64,000 nt of DNA, from NCBI RefSeq assembly GCF_011045215.1, contig NZ_CP049201.1; one strand, given 5' to 3'. Source of the stretch: Escherichia coli. GTDB taxonomy: Bacteria; Pseudomonadota; Gammaproteobacteria; Enterobacterales; Enterobacteriaceae. The notes under the pieces are model-generated. The model was given only the letters and a program-made list of their open reading frames with translations, ran no database searches and had not been told where the DNA came from. Below are positions 37,509 to 45,826 of this stretch, piece after piece (the first letter of the stretch is position 1; each line of letters begins with the position of its first letter). A program made the translations under genes and the position numbers.

Positions 37509-37615
37509 CGGGATTCTGAAATCCCGTTTTTGCCTGTTTTATGCGCGCTTCATATATCGCGGCGCGTTTTTTGCTCATTTACGGGATTTGTGAATCCCGT
37601 TTCTGTCTGTTTTTT
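37509..37615. repeat. two copies of a ~33-bp direct repeat, each with an 18-bp hairpin palindrome
   Basis: cgggattctgaaatcccg (37509..37526) and cgggatttgtgaatcccg (37582..37599), each followed by a T-rich tail; the second lies within the last codons of A. Confidence 0.5.
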
Positions 37616-40373
37616 TGTTTCCACTGGTCAGGCTACCCTGCAGCAGGTCTGCTTTGCGGCGGGCGCGTTCAGTGGTTTCACTGATTCTCTGTGCGTGCTC
37701 TGCGTCACAAATGGCGCGCAGCATGTCAGAAAGCACGGTAACGGGTGTTTTCATGGTGTTCTGGACCTGCTGAAGTGTGGATGCCAGGCGTGCGGCGGCT
37801 TCGGGGTCTGATGCCCCGAGCTGTGCCAGATAGCTGGCGACCGGGTTATGGCGGATCTCCGTGCTGCTTACGCCGTGATTACGGCTCAGGCGCTGCCAGA
37901 GCTGCGTGATTCGGCTGTCCGGGCGGGTATCCGGTTTACGTACAATTTCAAATCCCTGCGGTGAAATGATGCTGCCGTCAACGTACAGACTGCCGCCCCG
38001 TAACAGGTGCTGCATCTGCTGTTCACCGATATGCAGGCCGAGAGATTCAGCAGACTCCCGCCATTCTTTAGCGAGTAACTCGTGGTTATCAGGCAAAGGC
38101 CGCGGCTGTTTGCGGCTCTGTGTCCAGCTCTGCATTTCATCGCTGCTGTTTTTTGCCTGTTTGTCACGAAGCGAACGCATCAGCGCCCGGCGTTCGTGCC
38201 GTTTCAGTGAGCGCATCCATTCATTCACTTCAACGCCGTCAGGAAGCTGCGGCCACGGTGCTGGCCGTTCTTCCGACTGTTCTGTCCCGCTGTTGCCTGT
38301 TTCCTGTACACGGGGACAGTTATTGCCACGAGTCCAAGGGGCGGCAGGGCCGCCCTGAAGGTCAAAACCATTTTCGCGGGCGCTGTCTTCCGCTTCCGGT
38401 TTACGTCTTACCAGCTTCCAGTTATCCGGATGCGTGCACACACGGGAGGATTCCCCGATGAGTGGTGACCAGATCCCGTAAATCTGTACGCTCTGTTCGC
38501 CGTAATCGTTCAGCTCATCTGCGAGGTCGTAGGCGGTGCGAATCAGGTAGTCTTTACGTGGAACAAGTACGCCACCCTGTTTCTCAATGTAGGTGGCAAA
38601 ACATCCGGCATCAGCGGCAGCAAGAACCGCATCCATTGCGTCATCCTTCAGCCGTTGCGGGCCTTCCGGGTTGCGTGCCATCTGGCTGGCAAGGCGGCGG
38701 AGTTCACGCCACACCTGACGGGAGGGAATGCCAAAGAACTGGAACTGGCGGACCCGGTGAAGGCGCGCCCAGCCGATGGCGCGCTCCACGCTCTCGGCCA
38801 TTGATTTACCTGTTTCGTGGTCAACGCGTGGCTTGCCCGTTTTCGGGTCGATGCCATCCACGGCACGGCTGTCCAGGTTTTTCCCAATGTAGGTGGCGAT
38901 GTAGCTGGTCGGTGTGCCTTTTGAGCCGTCGACGTACTCCGCCTTAAAGCGTGGGGTAATATCATCACCCAGCTCGTGACGATCTTCCTGAATGGCAATA
39001 TCGCGGGTGTGGGACACAATGGTGTCGATTTCTTCCGGATGAGCAAAGACCATCATATGCCAGTGCACGGTGCCGTCATGGTGAGGCTCCACCGTGCGGA
39101 TGCCATACCAGCGCAGGCCGTCGCGGTTCAGTTTCTTGCGGACCGCCGCAAAAAACGTGTTAACCAGGTAATCGCTGGAGTCGCGCATGGTGGCCCCGTT
39201 CCATTTGGGATTCGGATGACCGTTCTCCGTTGTTGCGTGGTATTTTGACGGGCAGGTGACAGTCAGAAACACCGCTCTGTCGCCACGGGCTTCGGCCAGA
39301 AGTTCCAGCCCCTTCATGGTGGCCATCATTTCTGCCTTACGGTGAACCGGGTTACTTACTCCCGCGTAATACACTGTCTCGAGATCAATCGTGAACCCGT
39401 CTTCATTTTCCAGCATGAAACTTTTCAGGAAATCGCGTGTTTTCTCGCGCTGTGCGCGAAACTCGCTTAACGCGTCCTGGCTCAGATATGGTGATGTTTT
39501 TCTGGAAACCAGACAGGCGGCGCGGAGTTGTTCTTCTCTCCACTCGCAACGTAACAGCCACAGTTTGCGTTTCCACCATTCCGCACAGGTCAGGCGAAGG
39601 ATTGCGCCCGGCAGCAGCTCCGTGTCCGGTTCGTTCCTCCGGTCTTTGTCTGTCGTCAGTGCGTCATAATGTGGAGGCATGGCGTGCAGGTGTAACGCCA
39701 TGCGGGCCAGCATCTGATACGCCTTCAGCGTTACATCCATGGTCAGTTCACCATCAGTCGCGCCAAAGCCATCGCAGAGTTTTTCGAAGGTGCTGCTGAA
39801 CATCGCCGCCGTCATGGTGGCCAGCGTCTGTATCTGGTGTTTGTTGAGCTGCGGCAGGTAAAGCAAATCGTCCAGGCGTTCGCGTCCGGCAAGGGAGCGA
39901 TAACCCGGTGTCAGCCAGCGTCCGTCAGTGCGATCCAGACGTTCGAATATTTTGCGCAGGGTTCCGCGTGCATAGCGTTCCGCCTGCCAGCTCTTTTTGC
40001 CTTTCCTGCGATCGGCTTCCTGTTTTTTGCGCAGGAAGGAGAGGTGGCGAATAAGCGGATCGCGCAGATAGGACGGCAGCAGGCGCAGCGAGGCCATGGC
40101 TTCATCCACCGCGCCGCGTGCCTGTTTTCTGGCGTCTCCTGCCAGTGTGATGGTTTTGTCCTGTTTTTCCTGTGCGTCCAGGCTTTTATTAATCAGGTTG
40201 CCCAGCGGCGTGGCGGAGAACGCCGCATCAGCCATTTCCTGGCGGCGCTCGTTCTCTGCCCGGTAGGCATCCAGCCAGGAGGAAAGCGCGGATTCAGGAG
40301 CGGGGATCCCCGTTCCTTCACGCCCCACTGCGTGGCGCGGTTGTTGCCAGTCCCTGATGTACTCTGCCGTCAT
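37575..40373 (-). CDS. A: replication initiation endonuclease A (rolling-circle initiator)
   Basis: 932 aa; ..VHWHMMVF.. and ..YIATYIGKN.. (HUH and catalytic-Tyr contexts) as in P2 gpA. Confidence 0.88.
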   Translation of the reverse strand: MTAEYIRDWQQPRHAVGREGTGIPAPESALSSWLDAYRAENERRQEMADAAFSATPLGNLINKSLDAQEKQDKTITLAGDARKQARGAVDEAMASLRLLPSYLRDPLIRHLSFLRKKQEADRRKGKKSWQAERYARGTLRKIFERLDRTDGRWLTPGYRSLAGRERLDDLLYLPQLNKHQIQTLATMTAAMFSSTFEKLCDGFGATDGELTMDVTLKAYQMLARMALHLHAMPPHYDALTTDKDRRNEPDTELLPGAILRLTCAEWWKRKLWLLRCEWREEQLRAACLVSRKTSPYLSQDALSEFRAQREKTRDFLKSFMLENEDGFTIDLETVYYAGVSNPVHRKAEMMATMKGLELLAEARGDRAVFLTVTCPSKYHATTENGHPNPKWNGATMRDSSDYLVNTFFAAVRKKLNRDGLRWYGIRTVEPHHDGTVHWHMMVFAHPEEIDTIVSHTRDIAIQEDRHELGDDITPRFKAEYVDGSKGTPTSYIATYIGKNLDSRAVDGIDPKTGKPRVDHETGKSMAESVERAIGWARLHRVRQFQFFGIPSRQVWRELRRLASQMARNPEGPQRLKDDAMDAVLAAADAGCFATYIEKQGGVLVPRKDYLIRTAYDLADELNDYGEQSVQIYGIWSPLIGESSRVCTHPDNWKLVRRKPEAEDSARENGFDLQGGPAAPWTRGNNCPRVQETGNSGTEQSEERPAPWPQLPDGVEVNEWMRSLKRHERRALMRSLRDKQAKNSSDEMQSWTQSRKQPRPLPDNHELLAKEWRESAESLGLHIGEQQMQHLLRGGSLYVDGSIISPQGFEIVRKPDTRPDSRITQLWQRLSRNHGVSSTEIRHNPVASYLAQLGASDPEAAARLASTLQQVQNTMKTPVTVLSDMLRAICDAEHAQRISETTERARRKADLLQGSLTSGNKKTDRNGIHKSRK

Positions 40374-40379
40374 AGTGAT

Positions 40380-40745
40380 TTACTTCGTCATGCCATTCAG
40401 GGTGTCGCGGCAGACTGTAGCCAGCCGCTGAATTTCCAGCACGGTGTCTTCTGTGTCGGCATGGCGATGTGTGATGCGGATGCTGTCGGCAATCACATCG
40501 ACGATTGCAGAGGATGGGCGCTGGTAAATGCCAATAACGGACGGGGTGCCACCTTCAATGCGGTAAAGCCTGTAATTTCCCTCGTGGCTGTCAATCATGT
40601 AGCGACCATCAATAACAATCTTTCCGTCAGCGAGCTGCGGTACAGGCAGAGATTTCAGGTACATGTCATAACGATCACGCACGCGAGCGGCAAGATCACG
40701 TTCTGTGTTGAGCAGGTATTCAAGAAAGTCGTTGGCGAGAATCAT
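40380..40745 (-). CDS. hypothetical early protein
   Basis: 121 aa ORF immediately upstream of A on the same strand. Confidence 0.55.
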   Translation of the reverse strand: MILANDFLEYLLNTERDLAARVRDRYDMYLKSLPVPQLADGKIVIDGRYMIDSHEGNYRLYRIEGGTPSVIGIYQRPSSAIVDVIADSIRITHRHADTEDTVLEIQRLATVCRDTLNGMTK

Positions 40746-41227
40746 TGCGGCAATCCTCTTGTTACAGATGTGCGAAGGCCTCCCGCCGCAAGGTGCAGGA
40801 AAGGCCCGGAACAGGAATTAATGGAGTTTGTTTTGCTGCTGGATGAGCTGTTGAAGCTCGTGCAGATCATCCGCCAGATAGCTGAAAACAGAGGCGGAAT
40901 AAATGTTTGATAGTGCGTGGCTGCGCTCATGCCGCATATTGATGTGCATGATTTGCGCGACGCGTGATGCGCGGGAAAGTCTGCGGTTGATTTCAGTCTG
41001 GATGTGACGACGCTCCGCGATAGCGCGGTGCTGTTTGCGGTCTGCCATGGTGTGGCCTCTTTGCTCGGTGATAGAAATAACTCACCATCCAGAGTTGAGA
41101 ATCTCGGGGTGGCGAGACGTACAGGGTTCTCAACACCGGAGAGCAAAGAATCCGGCCCGACCGAAGTCGGCCCCGTACGCCCCGCCATAATTCTGACGCG
41201 AAAAAGACGTGGCAATACAGTACGCAC

Positions 41228-41248
41228 AAAAAAACCGCTTGCGCGGTT
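41228..41248 (-). terminator. rho-independent terminator (minus strand)
   Basis: On the minus strand aaccgcgcaagcggtt followed by TTTTTTT. Confidence 0.5.
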
Positions 41249-41370
41249 ATGCGCTTTGCTCTGTATCGGGTTGAGAATCCCGGCACCCGTTTTATGAGGT
41301 GCAGCGGAAATGTAACCTGACCGATTGAGGCATGGCAAGCGGTTTTTTTGTGTGTGCATGTTCTGGTTTC

Positions 41371-41670
41371 TTAGTGGTTCAGAAAAAAATCAAAAACCTT
41401 GTCAATGCGTTGCAGCAGCTCTTTCTGTATTGCTTCCGGCGTTTCCGGTTCGCCTGGCGCCTCCAACGTCGCGCAGAAATCCTCGATTTCATGACGGAGC
41501 GTCAGGCGAATGGCGAGAGGTGTGGTTTTGGCGTGCTCCAGCTGATCCAGCAGTGCCAGCACAGCAGACGGCGAGAGCATTGCGCGAAATGCCAGTAATT
41601 TTTGAGGAGTTGCCATTCGTTGCAGGGCAAATGCCAGTTCGCGTAGCTTCTGGTGGTTGGTGGTGCTCAT
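41371..41670 (-). CDS. hypothetical early protein
   Basis: 99 aa ORF in the early leftward operon. Confidence 0.5.
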   Translation of the reverse strand: MSTTNHQKLRELAFALQRMATPQKLLAFRAMLSPSAVLALLDQLEHAKTTPLAIRLTLRHEIEDFCATLEAPGEPETPEAIQKELLQRIDKVFDFFLNH

Positions 41671-41933
41671 GTTCTGGCTTCCTTCAGTAGCTGGTTAAAC
41701 ATGTGAGTAAGTGGATTGCTACACCCGAACGGCATCGGGTTTACGTGGTAAGAAGCCTGGCCTCCAGTTTTGCGAGCGCGACCACCTGTGCTGCGGTTTG
41801 TTCTGATGACTAAGCCGCCGCGCCAAAGTCGGCGTAACTCAGTATTAATAGCTGTGGTTGGGGTGTTCAATGCTGCGGCGATCTCTCCGCCGCTACACCC
41901 CGGATGAGTAGCGATGTAGTCCAGAATGGTCAT
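41667..41933 (-). CDS. hypothetical early protein, possible winged-helix DNA-binding
   Basis: 88 aa, overlapping start/stop with neighbours. Confidence 0.5.
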   Translation of the reverse strand: MTILDYIATHPGCSGGEIAAALNTPTTAINTELRRLWRGGLVIRTNRSTGGRARKTGGQASYHVNPMPFGCSNPLTHMFNQLLKEART

Positions 41934-44001: not shown

Positions 44002-44289
44002 TTAAAGCCCCAGCCACAACAACCATGCATCGCGGCGTTCTTTCGGCTGATCAAAAAACGCTTTGCGCATACCTGCGTTAAATGCTGGCAGATATACCCA
44101 GTTTTCTGATGCTCGCGTCTTCACTGAACCTGGTTTCACAAAGTCAATCGTTGGTAATTTTGCAGCGTCAATCATGGTTCTGACGGTTGATTCTTTGCGA
44201 CCAATCATCTTGGCAAATAGTTGATATGGCACCGCTTCAAGTGGATATGGTGCTACCTGAATGAACCCCTCAAGCTCTGATTCGCTCAT
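44002..44289 (-). CDS. cox: Cox-like excisionase / switch regulator
   Basis: ..VPYQLFAKMIGRKESTVRTMIDAAKLPTIDFVKPGS..ENWVYLPAFNAGMRKAFFDQPKERRDAWLLWLGL resembles P2 Cox; listed ORF 44002..44325, start taken as MSESELEG. Confidence 0.8.
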   Translation of the reverse strand: MSESELEGFIQVAPYPLEAVPYQLFAKMIGRKESTVRTMIDAAKLPTIDFVKPGSVKTRASENWVYLPAFNAGMRKAFFDQPKERRDAWLLWLGL

Positions 44290-44404: not shown

Positions 44405-44725
44405 ATGATCCATAAATCAAGCCTTGGAGAAAAACTTCGCCTGATTCGAGAGGCAGAGGGATTGTCACGTAGAGAGATGGAAGAGGTGACAGGGGTATCT
44501 CAAAACAATCTCAAAAATTATGAAATATTGGGAAGAATGATACCTGGAGAAACGCTACTCCTGATTTTGAATCATCCTCGTTTTCGGAAGTATTCGGATT
44601 GGGTGATGTTTAATCAAACTAATGCTGCGACGGGGCAGATTGCTCCGCCTCTCTCTCTTGATGGCTTCTTCGATTCGGAGGGCGATCAGGTTTCAACCGA
44701 AACAAACCAAAAATCACCCCGCTAA
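44405..44725 (+). CDS. C: immunity repressor C (HTH)
   Basis: ..LRLIREAEGLSRREMEEVTGVSQNNLKNYE.. HTH and ..TGQIAP.. resemble P2 C; listed ORF 44387..44725. Confidence 0.78.
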   Translation: MIHKSSLGEKLRLIREAEGLSRREMEEVTGVSQNNLKNYEILGRMIPGETLLLILNHPRFRKYSDWVMFNQTNAATGQIAPPLSLDGFFDSEGDQVSTETNQKSPR

Positions 44726-44821: not shown

Positions 44822-45826
44822 ATGTCAATTAAGAAGCTCGAAGATGGTCGTTATTTGCTGGACATCAGGCCGAACGGACGCAAGGGAAAGCGCGTGCGTA
44901 AGGTATTTGACAAAAAATCGGTAGCGGTGGCCACTGAACGCTACATCATGGCGAACGCTGAAAAGCGGGAATATATACAGGGCTACCGTGATCGCCGAAC
45001 GCTAAATGATTTGCTTGAGTTGTGGTGGATGTATCACGGTCAACACAGGCGTAAGGCGGAAGAAGACCGAAAACAACTGCGCAACATAATCAATGAGCTT
45101 GGCGCTGATATGCAGGCTGTGGATCTTGATAAGCTGAAAATTATCGCGTGGCGTTCTCAAAAGATAGCTGATGGATTGAAACCGTCATCTGCTAACAGAT
45201 ACATGAATCGGTTATCCGGAATGTTTACCGTACTGAAGAAAATAGGCCTCTGGGATGCAGAACATCCGGTAAGGGGAATTTCTATTCTTTATGTATCTCC
45301 ACGAGAAATGGCTTTCCTGTCCCAGAAGGAAGTGGCGCTATTGCTCGATACACTGGAGGGCGATTACTGGCGTGTTGCGCTTTTGTGTTTAAGCACGGGG
45401 GCGCGCTGGAGTGAAGCTTGTAAGCTTCGTGGTGAACAGATAGTTCATAACCGTGTAACGTTTCTTGAAACCAAAAATGGCCGAAAGAGAACAGTGCCAA
45501 TTTCGCAGGCAGTTTGTGAGGCGATCAAAACCAGAGAAACAGGCGGCTTGTTTGAGGTGAAGTACCGGGAATTCTGCTTGGCGCTGAAAAGAGTTAAGCC
45601 CGATTTGCCAAAAGGCCAGGCTGCACATGTGCTGCGGCATACGTTCGCCAGCCATTTTGTGATGAACGGAGGAAACATTATTGCGCTTCAGAAGATTCTT
45701 GGCCACGCAACCATTCAGCAAACAATGGCATATGCACATTTTGCACCGGATTACCTGCAGGATGCGGTGGCCCTTAATCCGCTGAAAGGTGGCGTGAGTG
45801 TCCACGCAGTGTCCACGGGGGATTAA
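44822..45826 (+). CDS. int: tyrosine integrase (P2 Int family)
   Basis: MSIKKLEDGRYLLDIRPNGRKGKRVRK.. N-terminus and C-terminal ..HVLRHTFASHFVMNGGNIIALQKILGHATIQQTMAYAHFAPDYLQDA.. resemble P2 Int. Confidence 0.93.
   Translation: MSIKKLEDGRYLLDIRPNGRKGKRVRKVFDKKSVAVATERYIMANAEKREYIQGYRDRRTLNDLLELWWMYHGQHRRKAEEDRKQLRNIINELGADMQAVDLDKLKIIAWRSQKIADGLKPSSANRYMNRLSGMFTVLKKIGLWDAEHPVRGISILYVSPREMAFLSQKEVALLLDTLEGDYWRVALLCLSTGARWSEACKLRGEQIVHNRVTFLETKNGRKRTVPISQAVCEAIKTRETGGLFEVKYREFCLALKRVKPDLPKGQAAHVLRHTFASHFVMNGGNIIALQKILGHATIQQTMAYAHFAPDYLQDAVALNPLKGGVSVHAVSTGD

Follow-up and report, generated by a model that had tools for sequence, protein, structure and literature searches.

The locus described here is best understood against three RNA-based control regions, those of phages P1 and P7, of the satellite phage P4 and of the Salmonella prophage Gifsy-1. 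In the immI region of P1 and P7 (c4 - icd - ant), Citron and Schuster are said to have described in 1990 two recognition sites of the C4 RNA, a' and b', with targets a1/b1 upstream and a2/b2 downstream. The downstream target reportedly covers the ribosome-binding site of the first open reading frame (ORF) of the anti-repressor operon, and P1 and P7 are said to differ in specificity through compensatory changes. The immunity region of P4 has the order PLE - seqA - CI RNA/seqB - seqC - epsilon - orf151 - cnr - alpha, and that of Gifsy-1 the order isrK - orf45/STnc1160 - anrP. IsrK is a structural homologue of P4 seqA, and STnc1160/C4 is a homologue of P4 CI; RNAs of the IsrK/C4 type are constitutively expressed in lysogens, and both P4-like and lambdoid prophages are described as having 'IsrK-C4 immunity systems' (PMC4825925, PMC7067206, PMC3632133). 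In Gifsy-1, binding of IsrK to Hfq and its action in trans have been shown, the short IsrK activating translation of the read-through mRNA and of the anti-repressor (PMC4825925). Here we analysed a stretch of 64,000 nucleotides of Escherichia coli DNA (contig NZ_CP049201.1; 'the window'). Positions ~41049-41370 of its minus strand very probably form an IsrK-C4 antisense-RNA control cassette in the early operon of a P88-like prophage, of the type known from P4 immunity (seqA - CI RNA - seqC) and from P1/P7 anti-repressor control (c4).

The interval 40746-41370 had originally been predicted to be a structured non-coding region, possibly a small RNA (sRNA), an attenuator or a protein-binding or replication element, and a scan against Rfam had been proposed. 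The scan returned exactly two hits at gathering level in the whole window, both inside the interval, and the small-RNA reading is thereby borne out by two curated families on the minus strand (Table 1). One is an isrK/seqA-like sRNA, whose match displays the features of the model, two 5' hairpins and a Rho-independent terminator. The other belongs to the C4 family RF01695 (Rfam clan CL00128), which includes P1 c4 and P4 CI. Here a 17-bp closing stem surrounds two hairpins, and the minimum-free-energy fold (-47.6 kcal/mol, z = -4.9) is the same as the Rfam consensus. Of the 19 versions of the closing stem, 18 are fully paired (17/17), and compensatory double changes occur at eight positions; ACCC is visible 3' of the stem. 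By analogy, we infer that C4 is cut from a longer transcript by RNase P and is stable and trans-acting. The c4-a1b1 motif (RF03163) stayed below gathering level at 41315..41263 (15.9 bits versus 46.7); P4 itself also falls just under this threshold (44.1 bits), and in the window the overlapping isrK model fits better.

The complements of the recognition sites a' and b' occur twice as a bipartite unit, once in the sRNA (b1/a1) and once after C4 (b2/a2). The a2 copy overlaps the Shine-Dalgarno (SD) sequence AAGAGG (41061..41056), which lies 7 nt before the AUG (41048) of an epsilon-like gene, and the overlap holds in all four of the specificity types that we aligned. The repeats noticed in the original prediction are these RNA-RNA recognition sequences of C4 and its targets: the three GTTGAGAATCYCGG copies are b2, b' and b1, and the 'hairpin around 41091..41140' is b' opposite b2. 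The exact copies GTTGAGAATCTCGG (41094-41107) and GTTGAGAATCCCGG (41270-41283) are the sole ones in the window, and the third, inverted copy is present at 41121-41134 with the core GGGTTCTCAAC at 41124-41134; taken as a 14-mer with 3 mismatches, this third copy is not above chance (14 found versus 8.6 expected). A second motif set had been overlooked, GAGCAAAG at 41059-41066 and 41254-41261 (minus strand) and at 41141-41148 (plus strand). The bipartite pattern TTCTCAAC-N(3-33)-GAGCAAAG is found exactly 3 times in the window, always inside the region, where 0 are expected. The observation is real and well above chance, and the small-RNA part of its interpretation was right. No further targets of this C4 were found elsewhere in the window.

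Evidence that the pairing matters comes from co-variation among related phages. Phages that share 96% identity across the flanking 1.9 kb drop to 85% within the 320-bp stretch containing the cassette. In an alignment of the window with five P88-like phages the differences are limited to six patches, within which the three copies of each site change together. The aligned sequences fall into four specificity types. At both sites the compensation among the three copies is perfect, and stems, promoter-like site and terminator are invariant. The window type combines b' GUUGAGAA with a' CUUUGCUC, the PV468777/P88_4B11/PhiR44_2 type CUGCGAA with CUUGUGUAG, the Shae_phiSM type GUUCCAA with CUUUGGUUG, and the P88 type GUGGAAA with CUGUAGUUG. 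We extended the comparison by scanning viral contigs with the invariant sequence of C4 hairpin 1, which yielded 120 loci; with the window itself and a few other related loci added, these gave 94 unique modules, nearly all of them P88-like. Among them, 22 a-loops and 10 b-cores make up 32 combinations of a' and b'. The module's own C4 has complements of 7 nt or more at a1, a2, b1 and b2 in 27-31 of the 32 combinations, versus ~1.5-2% of comparisons with control C4s of another type. Column entropy reaches 0.6-0.9 bits in the six recognition patches versus 0.05-0.33 bits in the other non-coding segments. Since all three copies of each site change together in relatives, these comparisons show that RNA-RNA pairing of a' and b' with their targets is under selection. 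The architecture, the family membership, the selected three-way complementarity and the position of a2 on the ribosome-binding site are thus established by comparative analysis. The many combinations of a and b alleles suggest recombination between the two sites.

Table 1. Features of the cassette and of the surrounding prophage, in window coordinates
Feature	Coordinates	Strand	Remarks
Integrase	44822-45826	+	
P2-C-like repressor	44405-44725	+	35% identity to P2 C, E=4e-20
cox	44289..44002	-	Upstream of the cassette
Long inverted repeat, upstream arm ACACACAAAAAAACCGCUUGC	41355..41335	-	Before the sRNA start; overlaps A-tract and -35
Promoter-like site of sRNA	41349..41309	-	Consensus scan; sigma-70-like
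isrK/seqA-like sRNA	41302..41228	-	Rfam RF01394, 63.1 bits (gathering score 50), E=3.9e-11, full model
Target copy b1 UUCUCAAC	41277..41270	-	In sRNA hairpin loop
Target copy a1 AGAGCAAAG	41262..41254	-	Inside sRNA
Intrinsic terminator of sRNA	stem 41248..41233; seven U 41234..41228	-	First two U close the stem
Long inverted repeat, downstream arm	41242..41222	-	3' half of sRNA terminator, U-tract and GUGCGU
C4 antisense RNA	41192..41105	-	Rfam RF01695, 78.5 bits (gathering score 45), E=1.1e-13, model 1-87/87
Recognition site a' CUUUGCUCU	41148..41140	-	Loop of C4 hairpin 2
Recognition site b' GUUGAGAA	41134..41127	-	Single-stranded C4 junction
Target copy b2 UUCUCAAC	41101..41094	-	Just past C4
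Target copy a2 GAGCAAAGAG	41066..41057	-	Separated from b2 by a small hairpin
Epsilon-like gene, 76 aa (P4 helper derepression protein family)	40818..41048	-	First putatively regulated gene 3' of the cassette
orf121	40745..40380	-	Matches phrog_3237
Replication endonuclease gpA	40373..37575	-	Pfam Phage_GPA, E=4.7e-131

Two cassettes were recovered from one source in four cases, three isolate genomes (L008/L009, L013/L014, L073/L074) and one metagenome sample (L056/L057), and at least the a-site allele differs in 4/4 pairs. We did not take this co-residence of differing specificities as evidence: it fits hetero-immunity, but the pairs are too few, and the identity expected between them is too low, for significance. 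We likewise rejected the idea that P88-like phages and P4-like satellites have specificity alleles in common. The apparent sharers are misclassified P4 satellites, and the alleles of the two groups are disjoint in our sample.

The original prediction saw no convincing coding frame anywhere in 40746-41370. This does not hold for the left 40% of the interval, where a conserved 76-aa gene lies; only ~41049-41370 is truly non-coding. A protein gene recognizable by homology is thus found within the interval, and the RNA element stands beside it, with the gene as its putative regulated target. The product matches the Pfam family PF25738 'Derepression' (34.4 bits versus a cut-off of 27) and is 32% identical to P4 epsilon (BLASTP, E=3e-8), and RefSeq and GenBank carry the gene as 'derepression protein'. 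An intact ORF is kept in 62 of 73 related modules, and its codon-position entropies (23.8/24.3/38.8) are highest at third positions. It lies at a fixed offset, +127 nt from the start of the scan pattern inside C4, in 99 loci. The order epsilon-like gene, (orf121), gpA is kept in ~100 of 127 related loci, and 7 loci are P4-like satellites. P4 epsilon inactivates the C repressor of P2, and the prophage has a repressor of the P2-C type; the regulated gene is therefore plausibly an anti-repressor, in which case the cassette would parallel P1 c4-ant. A conserved hairpin (40807..40776, minus strand; GGCCU...AGGCC with a 20-nt loop) lies between the epsilon-like stop and the orf121 start, and in a second class of spacers its stem is GGAAGC...GCUUCC instead, a compensatory change.

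Upstream of the sRNA, a consensus scan detected a promoter-like site consisting of an A-tract (41349..41343), a -35 element TTGCCA (41338..41333), an 18-nt spacer and a -10 element TACATT (41314..41309). The sRNA is predicted to start at ~41302, and the isrK match opens 7 nt past the -10 element. The geometry is alike in P4, with TTGCCT-18-TATAGT followed by 6 nt to the isrK match. The promoter block is nearly invariant among the 73 related modules (entropy 0.14 bits), and the consensus match makes it a candidate promoter. A second promoter-like site, TTGCCA-17-AATTAT at 41215..41187, was rejected as a promoter of C4; transcription from it would start inside the 5' stem of C4. The minus-strand hairpin terminator of the original prediction is real and is the isrK terminator.

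P4 gives hits to both Rfam families with order and strand unchanged; the promoter-like site before its isrK/seqA element has equal geometry, and an epsilon-family gene followed by a replication gene (alpha in P4) lies downstream. P4-like relatives, like the relatives of the window cassette, have three-way complementary sites with many alleles. P4 is a satellite, however, whereas the element in the window is a full P2-type phage that has a Cox/C switch. Its cassette lies in mid-operon and is more compact, with 35 nt between sRNA and C4 versus 107 nt in P4, and 56 nt from C4 to the epsilon-family start versus ~245 nt. In the window the downstream target sits directly on the SD sequence of the epsilon-like gene, a difference from P4, and the replication gene encodes the rolling-circle nickase gpA rather than the alpha primase-helicase. 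The window and the P1/P7 immI region both have a C4 RNA of family RF01695. The two-site a'/b' layout, the target at a ribosome-binding site and the compensatory changes in specificity that are described for P1/P7 recur here, but the downstream genes are an epsilon-family gene and replication genes instead of icd and ant, and an IsrK-type sRNA that has a terminator of its own carries the upstream target.

Gifsy-1 likewise combines an isrK-family sRNA, a C4-like RNA and an anti-repressor-type gene. Its isrK has its own promoter and a leaky terminator and its C4-like RNA is processed, whereas the window counterparts of these are predicted. Gifsy-1 is lambdoid and the window prophage P2-like; the regulated ORF of Gifsy-1 overlaps the C4-like RNA, whereas the window gene begins 56 nt past C4 and has its own SD sequence inside a2. 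What has been documented for Gifsy-1 is that the short RNA activates. The isrK-C4 tandem also lies upstream of anti-repressor or regulator genes in the lambdoid E. coli phages ASU11 and phi346. In the early regions of P2 and 186 neither RNA was detected at the Rfam gathering level.

If the cassette works as its counterparts in P4, P1 and Gifsy-1 do, the internal promoter would produce mostly short sRNA and some read-through transcript in the lysogen. C4 would be excised from the read-through transcript, by RNase P as in P1 and P4, and would pair with b2/a2, blocking translation of the epsilon-like gene. Polarity from this block would lower expression of orf121 and gpA, and the net effect would be to keep an anti-repressor-type function and replication silent. 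Acting in trans, the block would also reach incoming phages whose RNA specificity is the same. The b1/a1 sites of the sRNA would compete for C4; in this competition the sRNA would be either a decoy or activator, like that of Gifsy-1, or, like the P4 element, a second target for termination. Several considerations weigh against this scheme. Promoter activity, C4 processing, action in trans and the effect on the epsilon-like gene and gpA are all deduced from sequence and analogy; the role of an epsilon-like protein in a P2-type phage is putative; and co-variation does not separate pairing in cis from pairing in trans. The cassette also lies in mid-operon, ~3 kb from the early promoter Pe, whereas the P4 and P1 elements directly follow the controlling promoter. 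Because of this position, its role in the lysogen depends on the putative internal promoter.

The long inverted repeat of the original prediction exists as well, its two 21-nt arms (41222-41242 and 41335-41355) being 95% complementary. Its upstream arm, of which CACAAAAAAACCGCT is kept in most P88-like modules, precedes the sRNA start, so that only transcripts from upstream contain it. Predicted folds starting from 41302 form the terminator with a probability of 0.99; in folds from 41375 the long repeat pairs with a probability of ~1 and that of the terminator is 0.0. In transcripts from Pe, the long repeat would pair over the 3' half of the terminator, and the sRNA terminator would be read through. 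Transcripts from the internal promoter, which have no upstream arm, would stop there. On the strength of these models the long repeat may be a promoter-selective antiterminator, a proposal that we make tentatively and doubt slightly more than we believe. If it is true, antitermination would remove an evident problem, namely that the early operon has an intrinsic terminator before the essential gene A. The attenuator that had been among the original suggestions is consistent with the predicted pairing. Against antitermination, both arms are invariant in the P88-like group and lend it no support from co-variation, and overlap with the -35 element and the A-tract could explain why the upstream arm is conserved. 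Moreover, thermodynamic folds ignore co-transcriptional kinetics. The long repeat is present in the window and absent from P4, and no equivalent was found in other lineages, where the terminators of P4-like and other modules differ and the upstream match is at most 6-8 nt, mostly an A-run. As other lineages have no matching upstream arm, the case for antitermination is one from folding.

Two alternatives are variants of the same RNA mechanism. In one, the cassette would work as the Gifsy-1 IsrK-type switch does and not as a device for superinfection immunity: a read-through mRNA kept silent by internal pairing would be opened in trans by the short sRNA, allowing synthesis of the epsilon-like anti-repressor and hence induction. 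The sRNA scores above the isrK gathering threshold, the downstream gene is in an anti-repressor-type family, short IsrK activates the downstream ORF and the anti-repressor of Gifsy-1 and is needed for its induction, and P88 was recovered after mitomycin C treatment. However, the same architecture represses in P4 and P1, and the many recombining specificity alleles are better explained by selection for hetero-immunity than by a switch that is purely internal. We regard such a switch as unlikely to be the main mode of action, although activation and repression are compatible, as the ratio of sRNA to C4 could set the state. The other variant is a leader or attenuator of the early operon acting in cis only, in which a' and b' would pair with b2/a2 or b1/a1 of their own transcript and no stable trans-acting RNA would be made. 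The co-variation fits pairing in cis equally well, and the minimum-free-energy fold of long transcripts does pair the a'/b' segment with b2/a2 and buries the SD sequence. But the C4 fold is strongly conserved, with compensatory changes in its stem and the z-score given above, STnc1160 accumulates in Gifsy-1 lysogens, and P1 c4 and P4 CI are processed, stable and trans-acting RNAs, all of which makes a purely cis-acting leader distinctly improbable.

Two further readings would give the stretch a different function altogether. Lying just upstream of a replication gene, the repeats could be DNA-level sites for protein binding or a replication origin, as the original prediction also considered. 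This option found no support: the origin of P2 and 186 is a nick site inside gene A, repeat analysis detected no iteron arrays, and RNA families, together with strand-specific complementarity whose two sides co-vary as base pairs, explain all repeats. We consider it close to impossible. Very unlikely, if less so, is that the stretch is, or also is, protein-coding, with a 205-aa 'Ash' frame (41359..40742, minus strand), or the part of it from AUG 41188, being translated. This AUG lies at the 5' edge of C4, and translation through C4 would couple to orf121, a view to which we give the same small credence. The Ash frame is open in 71 of the 73 related modules and annotated as a 205-aa ORF in two phage records, but its hit to Pfam Phage_ASH (PF10554) is weak, 18.2 bits against a cut-off of 26. 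Stops in the variable patches are about as rare in this frame as in another (2 versus 4 of 59 variants), and where it overlaps epsilon its variation peaks at the second codon position, unlike that of a protein gene. Openness over epsilon is weakly non-random (P ~0.2-0.3 per lineage, ~3 lineages). Coupling has a precedent in Gifsy-1 orf45, which lies 3' of IsrK, overlaps the STnc1160 transcript and is translated and coupled to the next gene (PMC4825925); judging from transcript positions, orf45 would start at the equivalent AUG. In 74 of 103 unique modules the stop of the ORF from AUG 41188 and the orf121 start overlap as ATGA; this overlap is absent from the divergent 68-nt spacer class (0/8 variants), and no SD sequence precedes AUG 41188.

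We therefore rejected the 205-aa ORF as coding, as it has no coding signature, scores below the Pfam cut-off and is no freer of stops in the variable patches than another frame. Coupling through a leader ORF was also rejected as a conserved feature, being frequent in the close group and lost in the 68-nt spacer class. The ORF from the conserved AUG (41188..40742, minus strand; 148 codons) runs out of frame through the epsilon-like gene, and its TGA overlaps the orf121 ATG as ATGA at 40745..40742. At P4-like loci an equivalent 110-codon ORF overlaps the start of a downstream 75-76-aa ORF. The PF10554 match of the window's 205-aa ORF covers the isrK-C4 stretch (41036-41314, minus strand), which one GenBank record calls 'similar to ash family protein', and the old 137-aa 'cI' CDS of P4 (P4 8168-8584), which overlaps the CI/C4 RNA, scores 59.7 bits to PF10554. 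It thus appears that the Pfam 'Ash protein family' PF10554 is based on conceptual translation of an RNA locus, although orf45 of Gifsy-1, which overlaps a C4-like transcript, is reported to be translated.

The cassette belongs to a P2-family prophage that adjoins pdxB in the window. Its closest phages are P88 and other Xuanwuvirus members (Peduoviridae). The placement in an early operon was correctly predicted, with cox and a P2-C-like repressor upstream and gpA downstream; the operon runs leftward from the cox side through ~ten small ORFs to gpA. Downstream of the epsilon-like gene the transcription unit comprises orf121 and then gpA (37575..40745, minus strand). Homology of orf121 to P2 Orf83 was considered and rejected: BLASTP gave no alignment, and there is only a weak DUF5405 hint (E=0.074). 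Near the 3' end of gpA (window ~37590-37600) one A is added to an A-run (A7 versus A6 in relatives), which swaps the last ~20 residues (932 versus 940 aa), and RefSeq marks the same gpA as frameshifted in strain KSC9. From this extra A the prophage may be slightly defective. Below ~37475, 3' of gpA, lie a gene for a ParM segregation ATPase and a plasmid partitioning/stability gene, which also follow gpA in relatives (L001 1-1175; L002 454-1729) and suggest a capacity for plasmid-like maintenance. The genes just upstream of the cassette (window 41371-41700) are exchanged among relatives: orf99 occupies this place in the window, P88 has an SPFH-domain gene with a hairpin there, and Shae_phiSM a DNA-binding gene. 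Between P88 and the window, the upstream arm of the long inverted repeat marks the exact point where homology restarts, and the cassette thus behaves as a discrete module.

The RNA families and the logic of the cassette have already been described, and the finding extends known biology rather than adding a new kind. Its points of interest are the mid-operon position before an epsilon-type gene and gpA, the recombining specificity alleles and the possible promoter-selective antiterminator. Matches to the 625-bp interval, which holds the cassette and the epsilon-like gene, were found in 1295 of 5426 complete E. coli genomes. The cassette is common, yet no RNA is annotated at it in the RefSeq/GenBank records inspected, which show CDSs only, some with the spurious 205-aa ORF or an 'ash-like' note. 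We found no description in the literature of the cassette in P88-like or P2-family phages.

Identification of the cassette explains the divergence hot-spot noted above, and it places a P4-type RNA immunity module with an epsilon-family gene upstream of gpA in helper-type P2-family phages. It also offers a handle on hetero-immunity among P2-like prophages, on how P88-like phages, unlike P2, might be induced, and on the origin of the P4 immunity and derepression genes. Overall, we suggest, as a possibility that in its complete form is somewhat unlikely, that the P88-like phages of about a quarter of complete E. coli genomes carry an RNA-coded second layer over their Cox/C switch, combining a recombining two-site code with a promoter-selective antiterminator. 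If so, a two-site code with at least 22 a- and at least 10 b-alleles among the 94 modules would decide the expression of an epsilon-type anti-repressor, directed against repressors of the P2-C type, and of the replication gene. The helper lineage would then also have the P4 immunity-plus-epsilon module, and RNA alleles could determine whether helper, satellite and rival prophages silence or derepress one another.

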